From Actinomycetota bacterium (GTDB lineage: Bacteria > Actinomycetota > Acidimicrobiia > Acidimicrobiales > Ilumatobacteraceae), in contig JAPKZX010000073.1 in NCBI GenBank assembly GCA_026393575.1, positions 4,793 through 68,792 on the forward strand: a stretch of DNA of 64,000 nucleotides, read 5' to 3'. This document shows positions 3,160 through 16,366 of this stretch, one piece after another. Every line of letters begins with the position of its first letter. Position 1 is the first letter of the stretch. Under the pieces are notes generated by a model that had not been told where the DNA came from, ran no database searches, and saw only the letters and a list, made by a program, of their open reading frames with translations. A program made the translations under genes and the position numbers.

Positions 3160-4860
3160 TCACCAGGCATGTCCCGGCAAGCGCACATCACCATTGCGTT
3201 TGGTGAGACCCACTTTGTCGAGACAAGTAGCAAGGGGTACAGCGTGCTTGCGGGTAATACCAAGTGCATCGCGAAGTTGAGCCATGGTGAAACCGTCTGG
3301 GTGTGTCTGCCATAGAGCCGTCAACTGAGGGCGCACGTCGTTCAATGTGTCTACATGAAAAGCAATGTTGTCGTGTTCGAACAAAACATTTCGTTGTACT
3401 AACTGGCGAATGATGTTTCGATCAAGTGTTGCGGTGTCTGGTGTAAGTAAACCAGCTAGTTGAAACTCGGCAACATACGCGTGATCAAGTAGCGGGTCTT
3501 GTTTCGCACGCGACGCCACACCGTTATGGACAACAACATCCTTCAGTGTTCTCACGATGTCTTGTTCGTATGCAGCAAGATCTGTCATCGTGATGGACAA
3601 TTCATTTTCAAGTCGATTATTCAGTTGTTGAACAGTGTCGTTGTAATCGGCAGGCAACGCGTACCACGAACCAATTGTGGGTTGCAGATTTTGTCCAGTT
3701 AGCAGTCGTGCCTGAGTAATGGAAAGAAAGCCACGTTGCTGAAGGATGTCTTCGGGCGTTGCATCTGTATGTGCAAAACGCACTGGCCCTTGTGGATCGA
3801 GATTAATGATGTGCCCACCGCCAACAGTTTGGTCTATTCCTGTGTCGCGCAGAACAACATGGTCATGAATTGCCAACGGAAGCGGTTGTGAGAAACGCAA
3901 TCGAACAGTGGCAGTTTCTCCGGGGCTAATAGAAGAAGTGTGAGCAATGCGCACAGTGACGCTCTGCATGGTGGTGCCGATGTGCAATGTGAAACTTCCG
4001 CGGTGAGTCATCGGACGCTTCAGTGTTGAGACAGCGGTAAAGTGCACATCAACAACTGATGTCATGAGATATGACTGCTGCTGTATCAGTGCATCGCCGC
4101 GGTGAAGGTCTGAGCTGTCGATGCCCACAATGTTCAGCGCACATCGCGAACGTGGCTCGCATGTTTGGACAGATGAATCAAGAGTTTGTACTTCTCTAAC
4201 GCGTACCTCTTGGCTAGTGCGCGCAACGTGCAGCACGTCACCAACACTCACAGACGCACCTTCAAGAGTTCCCGTCACCACGGTTCCCGACCCGCGAATA
4301 GTGAACACACGATCGATAAACAAACGTGTTGGTCTTGCATGGGTAGGTGGTTCTTCGTTTTCAAGAAGAGACGAGAGATGATGCAGCAGTTCTGGCAATC
4401 CTTTTTGCGTAACTACGGATGTGCTCATGAAGTTGGTCCAGTGAATGGAACTATCTATCAGTCGCTGTCGAATATCTTCTTCTAACTCGGTCAACTCAAT
4501 CTCGGTCGCCTTGTCGCTTTTGGTAATGACAATGACACCCGTACGTATGTTGAGCAGTTGTAATACATCGAGGTGTTCTTGCGTTTGTGGCATCCAGCCT
4601 TCGTGGGCATCAACAATCAGCATCGCAATGTCTACTCCGCTGACGCCAGCGATCATTGTGCGAATGAAATCAGCATGACCAGGAACATCCACAAAACTCA
4701 AAGATGTTCCGTTGGGTGTCATGCAATGTGCAAAACCAAGGTCAATCGTCATGCCTTTGCGTTTTTCTTCGGCGAGGCGGTCTGGGTCTGTCCCAGTTAA
4801 TGCAAGAACAAGAGAAGACTTGCCGTGGTCGACATGTCCGGCGGTTGCAATGACTGCCAT
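3160..4860 (-). CDS. selB: selenocysteine-specific translation elongation factor SelB
   Basis: GTPase motifs AGHVDHGKSSL, DVPGH and TKSD, followed by a long C-terminal extension of the length expected for the SelB mRNA-binding domains. Neighbours are selA and tRNA-Sec. Confidence 0.93.
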   Translation of the reverse strand: MAVIATAGHVDHGKSSLVLALTGTDPDRLAEEKRKGMTIDLGFAHCMTPNGTSLSFVDVPGHADFIRTMIAGVSGVDIAMLIVDAHEGWMPQTQEHLDVLQLLNIRTGVIVITKSDKATEIELTELEEDIRQRLIDSSIHWTNFMSTSVVTQKGLPELLHHLSSLLENEEPPTHARPTRLFIDRVFTIRGSGTVVTGTLEGASVSVGDVLHVARTSQEVRVREVQTLDSSVQTCEPRSRCALNIVGIDSSDLHRGDALIQQQSYLMTSVVDVHFTAVSTLKRPMTHRGSFTLHIGTTMQSVTVRIAHTSSISPGETATVRLRFSQPLPLAIHDHVVLRDTGIDQTVGGGHIINLDPQGPVRFAHTDATPEDILQQRGFLSITQARLLTGQNLQPTIGSWYALPADYNDTVQQLNNRLENELSITMTDLAAYEQDIVRTLKDVVVHNGVASRAKQDPLLDHAYVAEFQLAGLLTPDTATLDRNIIRQLVQRNVLFEHDNIAFHVDTLNDVRPQLTALWQTHPDGFTMAQLRDALGITRKHAVPLATCLDKVGLTKRNGDVRLPGHAW

Positions 4861-4863
4861 GAG

Positions 4864-6171
4864 TTATTTCAAAGAGTTCACAGCATCAATGATGATGGAG
4901 TCATCATCGGGGTGCACGCTTCGTAGATCTATATATGTGGTGTTCGCTACAGTGCGAGCAATTACGGGCGTTGCATGGCGCCGAAGTGCCGCGCGCTGGT
5001 CGCCAGCCAATGAGATTCCATGTGATTCGATGGTGCTTCCTGGTGCCGAACCGGCACCGATGAGTGAATCCAACGCAACACTTGTACCGACCCCAGTTGC
5101 AGCGATGAGGCGCTCTGCTCGTGTGGCTAGTTCTTGAAGAGGCGTTGTGGCCATTGCCCAGAATGGAATCTGTGTGCATACGTTGCGCGCGCTGTAGGAC
5201 AGCAACACATTTTGTAATGCAAGAAGTGTGTGTCCACCGGGCCGGAGTGTACGCATGAGTGGATGCGCAGCACATTGCGCCACCAGATCTGCACGACCGG
5301 CAATCACTCCGCATTGTGGACCGCCAAGAAGTTTGTCGCCGCTAAACGTAATGAGGTCTGCGCCGTCGGCGATTGCTTGTCGTGCAGCAGGTTCTTGTGC
5401 AATCCACGATGGAACATTTTCGAGGTATCCCTGCAACCAAGGTGCGGTGTTGTCTAAGAGGCCAGAACCAATGTCGGCCACAACAGGAACTTCGAGCGTG
5501 GCAAGTTCGGAGATACTTGTTTGTTCTGTGAAACCTTCAATAGAAAAATTTGAAGGATGCACTTTCAGCAATAACGCAATGTCGTTCTTGCGCGAATCAA
5601 TGGCACGTTCGTAATCGCGGAGGCGAGTGCGGTTGGTTGTACCAACATCAACTAGACGCGCACCAGATTGTTCCATGACATCGGGTATTCGAAAGCCACC
5701 GCCAATCTCAACGCTTTCTCCTCGTGACACTGCTACGTCGCGGCCTTCCGCAAGTGCAGCAAGTACCAACATGACAGCTGCAGCATTGTTGTTGACAACA
5801 ATTGCATCTTCAACATTGAGCAGTTGGCCGAATAATTCCGAGACTGCAGTGTGTCGCGAACCACGTTCTCCATTTGCAAGATTGAATTCAAGATTCGTTG
5901 GTCTGTGTGAGTCGGTCATCGCAAGTGGAGCGCGACCCAGATTCGTATGAAGCAACACGCCAGTACCGTTCACCACAGTGGTGAGTAACGATTGTGAGAA
6001 ATACAAAGCATTGTCGTAGGCCGCACCCTGAGCATCTTGTGGAGCATCGCGGACTGCTTCACGAGCGCAATGAACAAGTACGGCATGGGGCAATGTGAAT
6101 GACTTGGCCAATTCACGTGCAATGACGTCCACAGACGGGGGGTGCACTTGCTGGTTGCTCACGATTGTCAA
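4864..6171 (-). CDS. selA: L-seryl-tRNA(Sec) selenium transferase SelA
   Basis: Contains FSGDKLLGGPQCGVIAGR (the PLP-lysine motif of SelA). Size is 435 aa. The start is TTG at 6171-6169. Confidence 0.92.
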   Translation of the reverse strand: MTIVSNQQVHPPSVDVIARELAKSFTLPHAVLVHCAREAVRDAPQDAQGAAYDNALYFSQSLLTTVVNGTGVLLHTNLGRAPLAMTDSHRPTNLEFNLANGERGSRHTAVSELFGQLLNVEDAIVVNNNAAAVMLVLAALAEGRDVAVSRGESVEIGGGFRIPDVMEQSGARLVDVGTTNRTRLRDYERAIDSRKNDIALLLKVHPSNFSIEGFTEQTSISELATLEVPVVADIGSGLLDNTAPWLQGYLENVPSWIAQEPAARQAIADGADLITFSGDKLLGGPQCGVIAGRADLVAQCAAHPLMRTLRPGGHTLLALQNVLLSYSARNVCTQIPFWAMATTPLQELATRAERLIAATGVGTSVALDSLIGAGSAPGSTIESHGISLAGDQRAALRRHATPVIARTVANTTYIDLRSVHPDDDSIIIDAVNSLK

Positions 6172-6189
6172 CCTAGTAGTTTGCGAACT

Positions 6190-7203
6190 GTGAATAACAA
6201 CGAGAGCACTATCAAGTTGACCGAATGGACTTCGTGTGGCGGGTGCGCTGCCAAATGGGGAGCATCGCTCCTTTCAGATTTGGTACGCGATCTGCCCGAA
6301 AGTTTTGATTCGTCTCTACTTGTTGGGCTCGCGCCGTTTGATGATGCTGCGGTGTATCAACTCACACCTGAAGTTGCCTTGGTGAGCACCACCGATTTTT
6401 TCCCACCGCTTGTGGATGACCCGTCTGACTTTGGTGCGATAGCGGCGGCCAATGCATGTAGTGATGTCTTTGCAATGGGTGGTCGTGTGGTGTTGGCTGT
6501 GAACATTGCAGCGTTCCCCGAAGAGTTACCACGCGATGTCATTGCATCAATTTTCGCTGCAGCATCTGAAACAGTGCGTGATGCAGGCGGAACGATTGCT
6601 GGTGGTCACACGATTCGCAATCCGGAACCAATTTTTGGTCTAGCAGTACAAGGCGTTGTTGACCCACGACACATTTTCCGCAAGAGCGGAGCTTTGCCCG
6701 GTGACATTGCAATTTTGTCGAAGCCATTGGGAACTGGCCTTGTGACTGCAGCCGGCACAGCGGAACAAAAGAAATCTGCGATTGCTGGAATGCGTACGTT
6801 GAATCGGGTGGCTGCAGAACAGTTGAGAGAACATCAAGACAGCGTGCACGCAGTCACTGACGTCACCGGATACGGATTGGCTGGCCACGGATGGGAAATG
6901 TCCGATAGGTCGGGGGCGCGCCTCATTATCGATAGTGCATCGTTACCTCTATATGAAGGTGCGCACGAGATTGCTGCATCTGGTCATCGAACGGGTGGCG
7001 ACCCGCGCAATCGCGCGTACGTTGCAGATCGATTGACCACAACAGCAGATGATTCGTATGTGGCGTTATGCATGGATCCACAGACGTCGGGTGGACTCCT
7101 TGCAGCAGTCACACCCGAGGTTGCTAAGACATTGTGCTCGACAGATCAGTGGACACAGATAGGCCATTTCACTGGTGAGACACCAGGTATTGAAATCCGA
7201 TAG
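6190..7203 (+). CDS. selD: selenide, water dikinase SelD (Cys-type)
   Basis: N-terminal LTEWTSCGGCAAKWG (the SelD glycine-rich Cys/Sec loop) and AIR-synthase-like body. The start is uncertain: GTG 6190 or TTG 6181. The track start 6142 would overlap the selA start. Confidence 0.88.
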   Translation: MNNNESTIKLTEWTSCGGCAAKWGASLLSDLVRDLPESFDSSLLVGLAPFDDAAVYQLTPEVALVSTTDFFPPLVDDPSDFGAIAAANACSDVFAMGGRVVLAVNIAAFPEELPRDVIASIFAAASETVRDAGGTIAGGHTIRNPEPIFGLAVQGVVDPRHIFRKSGALPGDIAILSKPLGTGLVTAAGTAEQKKSAIAGMRTLNRVAAEQLREHQDSVHAVTDVTGYGLAGHGWEMSDRSGARLIIDSASLPLYEGAHEIAASGHRTGGDPRNRAYVADRLTTTADDSYVALCMDPQTSGGLLAAVTPEVAKTLCSTDQWTQIGHFTGETPGIEIR

Positions 7204-7218
7204 CACCACGCCGATACG

Positions 7219-7467
7219 ATGCCCATTGTGGCTGTTGTTCGATTTTTTGCTCAGGCGAGAGAAGCAGCAGGTGTTGGTCAGGCCGAAATTGCAGGCGCAA
7301 CTGTGGCCGATGTATTGGAAAACGCCGTTGCCACCTTTGGCGAGGGCCTTGGTCGCGTGATTTCTATGAGCAAAGTATGGGTGAATGGCGAAGAAGTGCC
7401 ACGCGACCACCTCGTGAGCGATAAAGATGAGGTAGCGGTATTGCCGCCTGTCTCGGGAGGAATCTAA
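7219..7467 (+). CDS. MoaD/ThiS-family sulfur-carrier protein, C-terminus GG-I
   Basis: VRFFAQAREAAG...DKDEVAVLPPVSGG followed by one extra Ile before the stop. This is a typical MoaD beta-grasp signature. Confidence 0.85.
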   Translation: MPIVAVVRFFAQAREAAGVGQAEIAGATVADVLENAVATFGEGLGRVISMSKVWVNGEEVPRDHLVSDKDEVAVLPPVSGGI

Positions 7468-7952
7468 TGGCAACTAAACCACCACAGTCCGTTGCAGAGA
7501 TTCGCGCCCAACGCAATGCGTTACAGGCTGAAGAAGACGCAATTTCTTTTGTTCGCCGACTAGCGCAAGGTCGTCTTGACCTGGTGCAAGACGAAGAACG
7601 TCGTCGTGCCACAGGAACCGAAACGCCAGTGGGTTCGCTTGCTGATCGACTCGCGGATGTTTTTGGTCAACAACATGGTGGTGGCAGCGCTCGACCTCCA
7701 CGCGAAACAAACATTCCTGCAGATCATCCGCTAGTGAAAGAGCTAGATGAATTGTGCGAACACTATGAATTTGAATCACTAGAGAATTTGGATTCGAAGT
7801 CGCTCTCTGAACTTGCTGGTGCTCTCAGCATGTTTGAAAAATCATGTTCTCAACTGCGCCATGATTTATTCGAGAAAATCGATGCGTTAACCGCAGCACT
7901 TGTGGCCAGCGTGCGCGCTAGCGGCGCGGGCTCCGTGGTGAAAGACCAGTAA
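7467..7952 (+). CDS. RsiG-like coiled-coil protein (putative c-di-GMP-binding anti-sigma factor homologue)
   Basis: Residues 23-38, EDAISFVRRLAQGRLD, match E-x3-S-x2-R-x3-Q-x3-D exactly. Residues 124-139, EKSCSQLRHDLFEKID, match except Q to F. The predicted helical regions are joined by a Gly/Pro linker. Confidence 0.6.
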   Translation: MATKPPQSVAEIRAQRNALQAEEDAISFVRRLAQGRLDLVQDEERRRATGTETPVGSLADRLADVFGQQHGGGSARPPRETNIPADHPLVKELDELCEHYEFESLENLDSKSLSELAGALSMFEKSCSQLRHDLFEKIDALTAALVASVRASGAGSVVKDQ

Positions 7953-8332
7953 TGGCAATTCGTCCCACTGAAAAACTGCATGACGTCGGCGAGTTCATTC
8001 GCCAACAGCGCGAAAATGCACAACAAAGCATTCGCGACCTTGCGCGGTCTGCTGGTGTCTCAAATCCGTATCTGTCTCAAATTGAACGAGGCATTCGTCG
8101 ACCATCTGCTGACATCTTGCAGCAGATTGCGCGCGCCTTAGAGATTTCCGCAGAGACTTTGTATGTGCGCGCTGGAATTTTGGATGGGACACCACCCGAG
8201 ACAAGCAGCGTTCCTGAAGCCATCAACAATGATGAGCGTCTCACGCCCGAGCAAAAGCAGAGCTTGTTGTCGGTTTATCGCTCTTTCGTGGGTAGCCAGG
8301 AAACCACTGCGCCCGTTGCCGACCCCCAGTAG
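7952..8332 (+). CDS. XRE-family helix-turn-helix transcriptional regulator
   Basis: IRQQRENAQQSIRDLARSAGVSNPYLSQIERGIRRPSADILQQIARAL is a classic Cro/C1 HTH. The start overlaps the upstream stop (TAATG). Confidence 0.85.
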   Translation: MAIRPTEKLHDVGEFIRQQRENAQQSIRDLARSAGVSNPYLSQIERGIRRPSADILQQIARALEISAETLYVRAGILDGTPPETSSVPEAINNDERLTPEQKQSLLSVYRSFVGSQETTAPVADPQ

Positions 8333-8368: not shown

Positions 8369-9580
8369 ATGCGTCGTGTAGCAGTTCTCTCTCTTCACAC
8401 CTCTCCATTGGCTCAGCCAGGTATTGGCGATGGTGGCGGAATGAATGTCTACGTGCGTGAACTTGTATCGGCACTTGCTCATGCCGGAGTGGATTGCACC
8501 ACTTATACACGTGCATGGCGCGATGACCTGCCAGCAGAAATCAACGTCGAGCCAAATCACAAGGTTGTTCATATTCCCGCCGGTGCAGTGGACATGCCCA
8601 AAGGTGACCTTCTTTCTGTAGTTCCTGAGTTCACCGACGGTGTTCTGCGCCACATCAACGCAAATGGCGGCACAGATGTGATTCATGCCAATTATTGGCT
8701 CAGTGGTTTGAGTGGCCACACACTGAAGCACGAACTCGACGTTCCCCTTGTCAGCACGTTTCACACGTTTGCGCGTGTGAAGGCACTGGGTGGCGACCCT
8801 GAATCTGAATTGCGCGAACAAGCAGAAACAGATGTCATTGGTTGTTCTGACGTGATTTGTGTGAGTTGCACTGAGGAAGAACGCCAGTTCATCGAGCTGT
8901 ATGGCAACCCTCCTGGCACGACTGAAATTGTTGCGCCCGGCGTAGAGCATGCATTTTTTGCACCAGGTGACAAACGTGGTGCACGCAAAGCTCTCGAGTT
9001 GGGTGACGGACCAGTGTTGTTGTTCGTCGGACGTATTCAGCCCCTGAAAGGTGCCGATGTTGCGGTGCGATCTCTTGCTGAACTGAACAGGCCTGATGCA
9101 ACACTCCTCATTGTCGGTGGCGCTAGTGGTACCGAAGGTGAAACAGAAATTGCTCACGTTCATGCGTTGATGCAAGAACTCAAAGTGGAAAACCAAGTGC
9201 GCTTTGTTGCCCCACAAGCACACCACATTTTGTCCACGTACTATCGCGCTGCAGACGTTGTTCTTGTACCAAGCCGTAGTGAGAGTTTTGGCCTTGTCGC
9301 ATTAGAGGCAGCAGCGTGTGGAACACCTGTTGTTGCAAATGCGGTAGGCGGCTTGCTCACGATTGTCGAGCACGGACGAACTGGTTTCTTAGTTCCAGAC
9401 CGTCAGCCTGAAATTTTTGCTCGCCACATTGCAAACATCTTGGATGACCCTGCACTTTCTGCGCGAATGTCGCACGATGCTGCAGAACGAGCAAAGGGCT
9501 ACACATGGAGTTTTGCTGCTGCTCGACTTCGCCGCGCATACACAGACATCACTTCTCGTGATCGCGTGGTGTGCAAGTAA
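8369..9580 (+). CDS. mshA: D-inositol-3-phosphate glycosyltransferase MshA (mycothiol biosynthesis)
   Basis: N-terminal RVAVLSLHTSPLAQPGIGDGGGMNVYVRELV and a GT4 C-terminal domain with ESFGLVALEAAACGTPVVA. Confidence 0.88.
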   Translation: MRRVAVLSLHTSPLAQPGIGDGGGMNVYVRELVSALAHAGVDCTTYTRAWRDDLPAEINVEPNHKVVHIPAGAVDMPKGDLLSVVPEFTDGVLRHINANGGTDVIHANYWLSGLSGHTLKHELDVPLVSTFHTFARVKALGGDPESELREQAETDVIGCSDVICVSCTEEERQFIELYGNPPGTTEIVAPGVEHAFFAPGDKRGARKALELGDGPVLLFVGRIQPLKGADVAVRSLAELNRPDATLLIVGGASGTEGETEIAHVHALMQELKVENQVRFVAPQAHHILSTYYRAADVVLVPSRSESFGLVALEAAACGTPVVANAVGGLLTIVEHGRTGFLVPDRQPEIFARHIANILDDPALSARMSHDAAERAKGYTWSFAAARLRRAYTDITSRDRVVCK

Positions 9581-9584
9581 ACAC

Positions 9585-10046
9585 ATGAGCGAATTGTTTA
9601 GTAACTCCGATGTAGCCGTTTTAGAACGACGAATTACTGAATGGCTCTTTGCCATGAAGGACCGCAACGAGGCAATCGCTGCAGTCGATAAAGATCAAGA
9701 GAATCATCACCGTTGGTATGTGCGTTTACGTGGTGAAGAAAAAGAGTTCACGACTGTGTGGCTCACATTGGGTCAGCGCACTTTGCGATATGAAACCTAT
9801 GTGATGCCTGCGCCCGAAGAAAACGCCGAAGCACTGTATGAGCATGTCTTGCGCCGAAATGAATCCTTAGTCGGCGCTCATTTTTCTATCGGCGTCGAAG
9901 ATGCAATCTTCTTGCGCGGCGAGTTGCCTTTGCGTCTGGTTGATGAACCAGAACTGGATCGAGTGGTAGGAACGTTGTACGCCACAGTCGAACGCGTTTT
10001 TCCCGCCATCATTCGCATTGGCTTCGCCAGCAAATTCGCTGACTAA
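9585..10046 (+). CDS. YbjN-domain protein (conserved mshA neighbour)
   Basis: Starts at ATG 9585 (MSELFSNSD...), 5 nt after the mshA stop. Size and position match the YbjN-like gene found next to mshA in mycobacteria. The track start 9417 lies inside mshA. Confidence 0.65.
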   Translation: MSELFSNSDVAVLERRITEWLFAMKDRNEAIAAVDKDQENHHRWYVRLRGEEKEFTTVWLTLGQRTLRYETYVMPAPEENAEALYEHVLRRNESLVGAHFSIGVEDAIFLRGELPLRLVDEPELDRVVGTLYATVERVFPAIIRIGFASKFAD

Positions 10047-15106: not shown

Positions 15107-16366
15107 ATGTCCATCGTTGTCATCGGTCTCAACCATCGAACTACTCCAGTAGATCTATTGGGCAAGGTCATGATTTCCGATGCAGCACTTCCAAAAGCGT
15201 TGCATGCACTGTCAGTTCGCGATGACATTCGCGAAGCGGTAATTGTTTCTACGTGCAATCGCACCGAGGTCTACGCAATCGCTGAAAGATTTCACGGTGC
15301 ATACACAGACATCCGCGATTTCATTTGTGAAACGAGCGGTGTTGCTCCAGAAGAAATCTCTGCGCATCTGTACAGCCAACATGATGACGATGCCATTGTG
15401 CATTTGTTTGAAGTTGCAGCAGGACTTGATTCAGCCGTACTTGGTGAAACCGAAGTTTTAGGCCAAGTTCGTCACGCGTGGGATGTGGCAATGAATGAGG
15501 GTTCATCGCGTAGTGCGCTGAACTTACTTTTCCGTTACGCCCTAGAAGTAGGAAAGCGCGCGCGCACTGAAACAGGAATTAGCAAGTCAACAGCGTCTGT
15601 TTCGCATGCTGCAGTTGAAATGGCTGAAGAGATTCTTGGTTCTTTGACCGGTAAGAGTGTTCTTGTTGTTGGCGCTGGCGAAATGGGCGAAGGTGTTGCA
15701 ACTGCTTTATCTCGTGCTGGAGTTGCAACTATGACAGTGGTCAACCGCACCGAGTCACGTGGTGAAGCTCTGGCAGAAAAAGTCGGGGCGCGTGTGTGCT
15801 CATTTGATTTCCTAGAAACTGAACTTGCGAGTGCCGACGTTGTCTTGGCGTGCACCGGTGCAGGAACTTGCGTCATTGATTTTGATTTGGTCTCGCGTAC
15901 TCGTACAGACTCAAGTCGTCCGGTACTGATTGTGGACATTGCATTACCACGCGATGTCGAGCCAACAGTTGCAACAATTGCGAATGTCACGTTGCGTGAC
16001 CTCGATCATCTCAGTCAATGGGCACAACGCGGCATCGAACAACGCGCGTCGGAAATAGATCAAGTGCGCAACATTATTTCTGACGAGGTGGAACGCTTCA
16101 CGCTTGATCAGGCACAACGCCAAGCGGCTCCATTGGTGGCGCAATTGCGAGAAGTAATTGAGGCCGTGCGTGTTTCTGAAATTGAGCGATTCACTGGCCG
16201 GCTCACCGACCTCACCCCAGAACAGCGTGAGGTGGTTGAATCCATTACTCGGGGCATCGTCAACAAGATGCTTCACACACCGTCTGTCCGCCTGCGAGAA
16301 GCAGCCGGAACTCCACAGGGAGAGCGTTTGTCCGCAGCGGTGCGAGATTTGTTTAGTCTCGACTGA
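15107..16366 (+). CDS. hemA: glutamyl-tRNA reductase
   Basis: VSTCNRTEVYA catalytic-Cys motif and NADPH fold VVGAGEMGE. Confidence 0.92.
   Translation: MSIVVIGLNHRTTPVDLLGKVMISDAALPKALHALSVRDDIREAVIVSTCNRTEVYAIAERFHGAYTDIRDFICETSGVAPEEISAHLYSQHDDDAIVHLFEVAAGLDSAVLGETEVLGQVRHAWDVAMNEGSSRSALNLLFRYALEVGKRARTETGISKSTASVSHAAVEMAEEILGSLTGKSVLVVGAGEMGEGVATALSRAGVATMTVVNRTESRGEALAEKVGARVCSFDFLETELASADVVLACTGAGTCVIDFDLVSRTRTDSSRPVLIVDIALPRDVEPTVATIANVTLRDLDHLSQWAQRGIEQRASEIDQVRNIISDEVERFTLDQAQRQAAPLVAQLREVIEAVRVSEIERFTGRLTDLTPEQREVVESITRGIVNKMLHTPSVRLREAAGTPQGERLSAAVRDLFSLD

Follow-up and report, generated by a model that had tools for sequence, protein, structure and literature searches.

A twin-motif RsiG homologue with a phenylalanine variant of the c-di-GMP signature in freshwater Ilumatobacteraceae

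The rsiG locus and its gene order

The analysed window is a stretch of 64,000 nucleotides from a freshwater Ilumatobacteraceae MAG (Acidimicrobiia) of 1.92 Mb, which consists of 129 contigs, is 82% complete and has a G+C content of 51.5%. The plus strand carries a MoaD/ThiS-like gene (7219..7467; PF02597 at 53.8 bits), followed by the rsiG homologue (7467..7952) coding for a putative twin-helix anti-sigma factor of 161 aa, the gene for an XRE-family HTH regulator (7952..8332; HTH_3 at 51.7 bits) and an mshA-like glycosyltransferase gene (8369..9580), whose TIGR03449 score of 382.6 bits is under the cut-off of 462.5. Both junctions of rsiG are TAATG overlaps, as read from the sequence and as originally predicted: the final A of the MoaD-like stop codon TAA (7465-7467) is also the first letter of the rsiG start ATG (7467-7469), and the rsiG stop TAA (7950-7952) overlaps the XRE start ATG (7952-7954) in the same manner. 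The open reading frame and the two copies of the c-di-GMP signature, including the exchange of Gln for Phe in the second copy, likewise lie where the original prediction had placed them, as confirmed by residue count. A scan for sigma-70 promoters and terminators between 5900 and 8500 gave no promoter-like site and nothing above the values of shuffled sequences.

The relatives of the locus stem from freshwater MAGs of either Ilumatobacteraceae or Acidimicrobiaceae, and the 40 related loci all show the order MoaD-like, RsiG, XRE, MshA-like, YbjN-like, ProC within the reach of the respective contigs. Among the neighbours of rsiG in the Ilumatobacteraceae, the MoaD-like gene is the most constant; it is located directly 5' of rsiG in every locus whose contig extends that far, and its stop codon overlaps the rsiG start in most relatives as well. 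Across the wider Ilumatobacteraceae, the MoaD-RsiG-MshA arrangement is constant, whereas the XRE gene is variable: most relatives have it between rsiG and mshA, usually spaced from rsiG by a few to about 50 bases without any overlap, but five genomes (G186, G407, G409, G411, and G413) lack it at the locus while keeping MoaD-RsiG-MshA. One of these, G186, belongs to the same genus as the source genome and is 99% complete. A protein search of the five genomes detected no XRE gene elsewhere either, while the same search recovered the gene in the controls G000, G402, and G408. In 30 RsiG loci from outside the Ilumatobacteraceae, the sequence up to 1.5 kb from RsiG contains neither XRE nor MoaD nor MshA. 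The coupling of MoaD, rsiG and XRE is a feature of gene order at the family level, and the XRE regulator is not an obligate partner. The HTH domain of this regulator resembles those of SinR, DdrO, and ClgR, and its sequence identity among the relatives amounts to 75-97%, compared to 58-99% for RsiG.

Some further features of the surroundings may be mentioned. Immediately upstream of the MoaD-like gene, selB and selA (minus strand) and selD (plus strand) occupy positions 3160-7203 of the window; several relatives without selB, selA and selD still keep MoaD-RsiG. The MoaD/ThiS-like protein ends in ...PPVSGGI, one residue past the Gly-Gly. A YbjN-family protein is encoded 3' of mshA in all relatives (9417-10046 in the window); the longest open reading frame, starting at 9417, runs into the end of mshA, so that the real start is probably at about 9580.

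Assignment to the RsiG family and the c-di-GMP signature

Residues 8-64 of the 161-aa protein match the Pfam RsiG family PF22802 with 57.7 bits (cut-off 27), and the best sequence match in the PDB is 6pfj_T (E 6.9e-9, residues 9-150), the RsiG chain of the RsiG-WhiG-c-di-GMP complex of S. venezuelae, which had been deposited as "AmfC protein". This alignment extends over the loop and the two motif helices, with both motifs in register, whereas the RsiG chains of Rubrobacter (7LQ2-4) align to helix 1 alone (E 0.002-0.02). The similarity therefore reaches well past the short motif; a lack of similarity beyond the motif would have refuted the original prediction by its own terms. NCBIfam contains no model for the protein. 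An AlphaFold2 model built from 31 relatives (mean pLDDT 85.2) predicts five helices at residues 9-49, 58-70, 88-99, 102-107, and 110-152, with α1 and α5 forming an antiparallel coiled coil and being connected by short helices and a loop, which indicates the same α1-α5 layout as in published RsiG (PMC7005675). When the model was compared with the PDB by Foldseek, the best four matches were RsiG chains (probability 1.00, TM 0.58-0.68, 25-26% identity), and the next one followed only at an E-value of 0.45. The combined evidence from the Pfam family, the alignment to 6PFJ and the Foldseek matches bears out the original prediction of an RsiG-type coiled-coil protein and supports, at the level of sequence and modelled structure, its assignment as a genuine member of the RsiG family.

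The two motif helices of the window protein share about 15% identity by our own count. Helix 5 of the relatives scores 21-38 bits on the RsiG model, which fits an origin of the twin motifs from a repeat; helix 5 of the window protein itself does not score. A second RsiG paralogue in the relatives was considered and rejected, the apparent two matches representing the two helices of a single open reading frame.

The motif of α1, EDAISFVRRLAQGRLD (7533..7580, plus strand; residues 23-38), exhibits the exact consensus with E23, S27, R30, Q34, and D38 and aligns to repeat 1 of S. venezuelae RsiG, EADLSYVRRMLQGRID; all five signature residues are invariant in the 31 relatives. As translation of the entire genome in all six frames (3.83 million residues) yields only two exact matches to E-x3-S-x2-R-x3-Q-x3-D, the signature is rare, but the second match is an unrelated site in a frame of 1178 aa, so the proof of identity comes from the family-level matches rather than from the motif alone. 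The motif of α5, EKSCSQLRHDLFEKID (7836..7883, plus strand; residues 124-139), aligns in register to repeat 2 of S. venezuelae RsiG, EQQISRRRHHLQRTAD. Its residues E124, S128, R131, and D139 match the published consensus E(X)3S(X)2R(X)3[Q/H](X)3D, while F135 at the Gln/His position falls outside of it. The five residues E, S, R, F, and D are unchanged in 119 of the 120 closest homologues, although the intervening residues vary, the remaining homologue being an N-terminally truncated fragment of 153 aa. The combination of Gln in helix 1 and Phe in helix 5 was found in all 14 genera of the Ilumatobacteraceae sample and in 36 further loci, down to 34% identity (loci L009-L048, L079-L091, and L121), and none of the 50 Ilumatobacteraceae copies deviates from the Phe, whereas twin-motif copies from outside the family show Q/Q, H/Q, H/L, or Q/L. 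Among 118 representatives of clusters at 50% identity, the helix-5 position is occupied by H (58), F (43), L (8), Y (3), or Q (3). In the crystal structures, the residue at the Q/H position stacks on the splayed guanine, while Arg and Asp provide base specificity (PMC7005675, PMC8325347). A stacking role of Phe135 is plausible by analogy and, since a fixed aromatic residue suits guanine stacking, the Phe is read as a lineage variant of the site rather than as a sign of decay. As judged from the available sequences, its fixation across the whole family is a new, if small, observation.

The linker loop LADRLADVFGQQHGGGSARPPRET (7638..7709, plus strand; residues 58-81) is the counterpart of the S. 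venezuelae RsiG loop which wraps c-di-GMP. Within the family, no other stretch of the protein is as well conserved, and the part LADVFGQQHGGGSARPPRET of the loop (residues 62-81) is almost invariant. H70, S74, and R76, all invariant or nearly so in the family, align with H110, S112/113, and R115 of S. venezuelae RsiG, and Gly67 with S108, by alignment only; S108, H110, S112, and R115 contact c-di-GMP in the known protein (PMC7005675). The AlphaFold2 model shows low pLDDT values at residues 70-78, in agreement with a loop that becomes ordered only on WhiG, as has been published for RsiG (PMC8325347).

The WhiG-type sigma factor and c-di-GMP turnover

No whiG gene is present within the 64-kb window, as had been noted beforehand, but a WhiG-type sigma factor of 250 aa is encoded elsewhere in the genome, on contig C126 at approximately 15530-16282. 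It matches TIGR02479 (FliA/WhiG) with 263 bits (cut-off 189.6), and among the PDB structures it is most similar to S. venezuelae WhiG (E 6e-69), with FliA behind it at E 8e-51. Its residues K38, G42, and R43 correspond to K57, G61, and R62 of S. venezuelae WhiG, which touch c-di-GMP and mark the RsiG-regulated WhiG2 clade (PMC8325347; bioRxiv 10.64898/2026.01.14.699351), the clade with which RsiG pairs according to Denis et al. (2026; bioRxiv 10.64898/2026.01.14.699351). Less similarity is seen at the RsiG-contact positions of sigma-4, where I206, L207, D210, D211, and L213 stand against T235, L236, Y239, E240, and L242 of S. venezuelae: two of the five are identical (L236, L242) and one is conservatively exchanged (E240 to Asp), while T235 is replaced by Ile and Y239 by Asp. 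The gene is located between those for an XerC-like recombinase and an M23 peptidase, followed by rpsB; this order is common to two relatives, and a Streptomyces-sized genome has the same M23 neighbour.

RsiG was found in 14 and WhiG in 12 of the 15 genomes of the Ilumatobacteraceae sample. Both searches covered 26 genomes of the class, which are kin and thus represent few independent events rather than 26. All 21 of them with RsiG also contain a WhiG of at least 249 bits, while the five without RsiG show a FliA-like match of at most 176 bits or none. In G407, a genome of the same family (96% complete, 170 contigs) with a twin-motif RsiG, no FliA/WhiG match was obtained at E <= 1e-40, and the XRE gene is missing as well. 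The case may be due to a gap in the assembly or represent an orphan RsiG. The original prediction had left the partner of the protein open and suggested that it might differ from the Streptomyces paradigm; the WhiG2-like sigma factor of the genome with its retained K/G/R residues, the class-wide co-occurrence of RsiG and WhiG and the dispensability of the XRE gene all argue against this.

The lineage is non-flagellated and planktonic, and a flagellin search of the genome (82% complete) yielded no hit. A whole-genome scan for T[AC]AA-N15-17-GCCGA gave 104 loose matches, which is close to the number of about 87 expected by chance (a rough estimate). Nine intergenic candidates for WhiG promoters show no coherent function, and a conserved WhiG-type promoter near the moaD-rsiG-XRE operon was found in none of 15 relatives.

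The only GGDEF domains of the genome (C34:75087-76334 and C71:29255-30523) belong to two GGDEF-EAL proteins, of which one has a membrane N-terminus and the other contains PAS domains. A genome devoid of diguanylate cyclases, which would have refuted the original prediction, is thereby excluded only in part: the GGDEF domains exist, yet their A-sites read AGDEF and SGDEF. The EAL motifs are canonical in both proteins, while both A-sites are non-canonical, which is a new but small detail of this genome. The orthologues of the membrane protein in relatives likewise carry SGDEF or AGDEF, and those of the PAS-GGDEF-EAL protein have a canonical GGDEF in G186 (from the same genus), G402, G407, and G409. 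Synthesis of c-di-GMP in the source MAG appears likely from the sequences but, given the two non-canonical A-sites, is not assured. Family genomes of 1.7-2.4 Mb contain exactly two GGDEF matches each, compared to 10-41 in large genomes, suggesting that the c-di-GMP network of the small genomes is minimal.

A proposed RsiG-WhiG switch and competing explanations

The observations are best accommodated by a monomeric twin-motif RsiG which binds a c-di-GMP dimer and sequesters a WhiG2-type sigma factor, and we regard this model as a whole as quite probable. Helices α1 (9-49) and α5 (110-152) would pack as an antiparallel coiled coil, as predicted by the structural model, and each helix would offer Glu, Ser, Arg, and Asp for contacts to ribose and guanine, together with one stacking residue, Gln34 on α1 and Phe135 on α5. 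[quoted passage not shown] The family membership, the predicted fold, the conserved motifs, the sigma factor with its co-occurrence and the GGDEF-EAL genes are observations, whereas we infer that the protein binds c-di-GMP and WhiG and in which direction it regulates.

The closest competitor would be an RsiG that still binds WhiG, but whose dependence on c-di-GMP has been altered or lost through the exchange of Gln for Phe and the reduced, possibly inactive set of cyclases. The departure of F135 from the published consensus, the AGDEF or SGDEF sites in both GGDEF domains and the mere two GGDEF genes here and in other genomes of 1.7-2.4 Mb would all fit such a loss. We nevertheless consider it unlikely, as neither helix varies at Arg and Asp, which specify the base, or at Glu and Ser, which contact the ribose, and as the His, Ser, and Arg of the loop are likewise invariant. 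In addition, Phe can stack on guanine no less well than Gln, and its fixation in about 50 copies with identities as low as 34% points to selection, not decay. Moreover, the same-genus orthologue of the PAS-GGDEF-EAL protein still has a canonical GGDEF, and WhiG retains Gly42 and Arg43.

Still less can be said for the translationally coupled XRE regulator as the functional partner in place of WhiG, a very unlikely arrangement despite the overlap of the rsiG stop and the XRE start by one base and the position of the XRE gene directly 3' of rsiG in most Ilumatobacteraceae loci, where it is even more conserved than RsiG. The gene was found nowhere in the five genomes named above, which maintain MoaD-RsiG-MshA, the two genes are spaced rather than overlapping in most relatives, and the 30 RsiG loci outside the family have no XRE gene nearby. 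We also know of no precedent for an RsiG binding an HTH protein. That the window protein is merely a generic coiled-coil protein carrying the motif by chance is a notion to which we attach hardly any probability: the unrelated exact match elsewhere in the six-frame translation speaks in its favour, but the full-length homology to a solved RsiG, the Pfam match and the fold match refute it, and the co-occurrence with WhiG also speaks against it.

Relation to known RsiG systems

Compared to RsiG of S. venezuelae (Vnz19430, formerly AmfC; 6PFJ, 6PFV), the window protein shares the five-helix layout, the motifs on α1 and α5 in register and the loop residues His, Ser, and Arg, and in both systems the partner sigma factor contains the K/G/R residues and is encoded far from rsiG. 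The two proteins differ in that they are only about 25% identical, that the window protein is shorter (161 aa versus about 24 kDa) due to a reduced N-terminal tail, that the stacking residue of α5 is Phe instead of Gln, and that α1 and α5 resemble each other less than the 33% identity found in the S. venezuelae protein. Unlike in Streptomyces, the output cannot be sporulation, as the source organism is unicellular, planktonic and genome-streamlined. RsiG of Rubrobacter radiotolerans (7LQ2-7LQ4), likewise from a unicellular actinobacterium, has a similar α1 helix and motif, but it contains one motif and forms a homodimer, whereas the window protein has two motif helices per chain.

Twin-motif RsiG proteins have been reported from three of four Acidimicrobiales, always together with WhiG (Schumacher et al., 2021; PMC8325347). 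These are from the same class and show the same twin-motif architecture, but derive from cultured reference genomes. The window protein belongs to this Acidimicrobiales twin-motif group and is an expected member of the known RsiG-WhiG switch. The Phe variant and the MoaD-RsiG-(XRE)-MshA order are not described in that study, and neither it nor the work of Denis et al. (bioRxiv 10.64898/2026.01.14.699351) mentions Ilumatobacter, the Phe variant or the XRE neighbour. The RsiG-(c-di-GMP)-WhiG switch would thereby be extended to abundant uncultured freshwater plankton with very small genomes, the Ilumatobacteraceae, where RsiG may be the main or sole c-di-GMP effector of the small-genome members. 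Neither the Phe variant nor the extension to freshwater changes the known mechanism. It is rather doubtful, if conceivable, that in the streamlined Ilumatobacteraceae two GGDEF-EAL enzymes feed into a single asymmetric RsiG(Q/F)-WhiG switch controlling a non-flagellar, non-sporulation regulon, with XRE as a second output in some genera. The stacking position of helix 5 appears to tolerate Phe and, in the Ilumatobacteraceae, to require it, which offers a wider search pattern for such c-di-GMP receptors.

A view on the wider distribution shows PF22802 in 279 of 401 sampled Actinomycetota genomes, in many of them as single-helix open reading frames of about 100 aa, compared to RsiG in 134 of 673 reference genomes in the 2021 survey (PMC8325347). 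The high share probably reflects the sampling of uncultured or basal lineages. A wider non-RsiG family as the source of this spread was considered and discarded, the short open reading frames which were checked being Rubrobacter-type single-motif RsiG, one of which matches 7LQ4.
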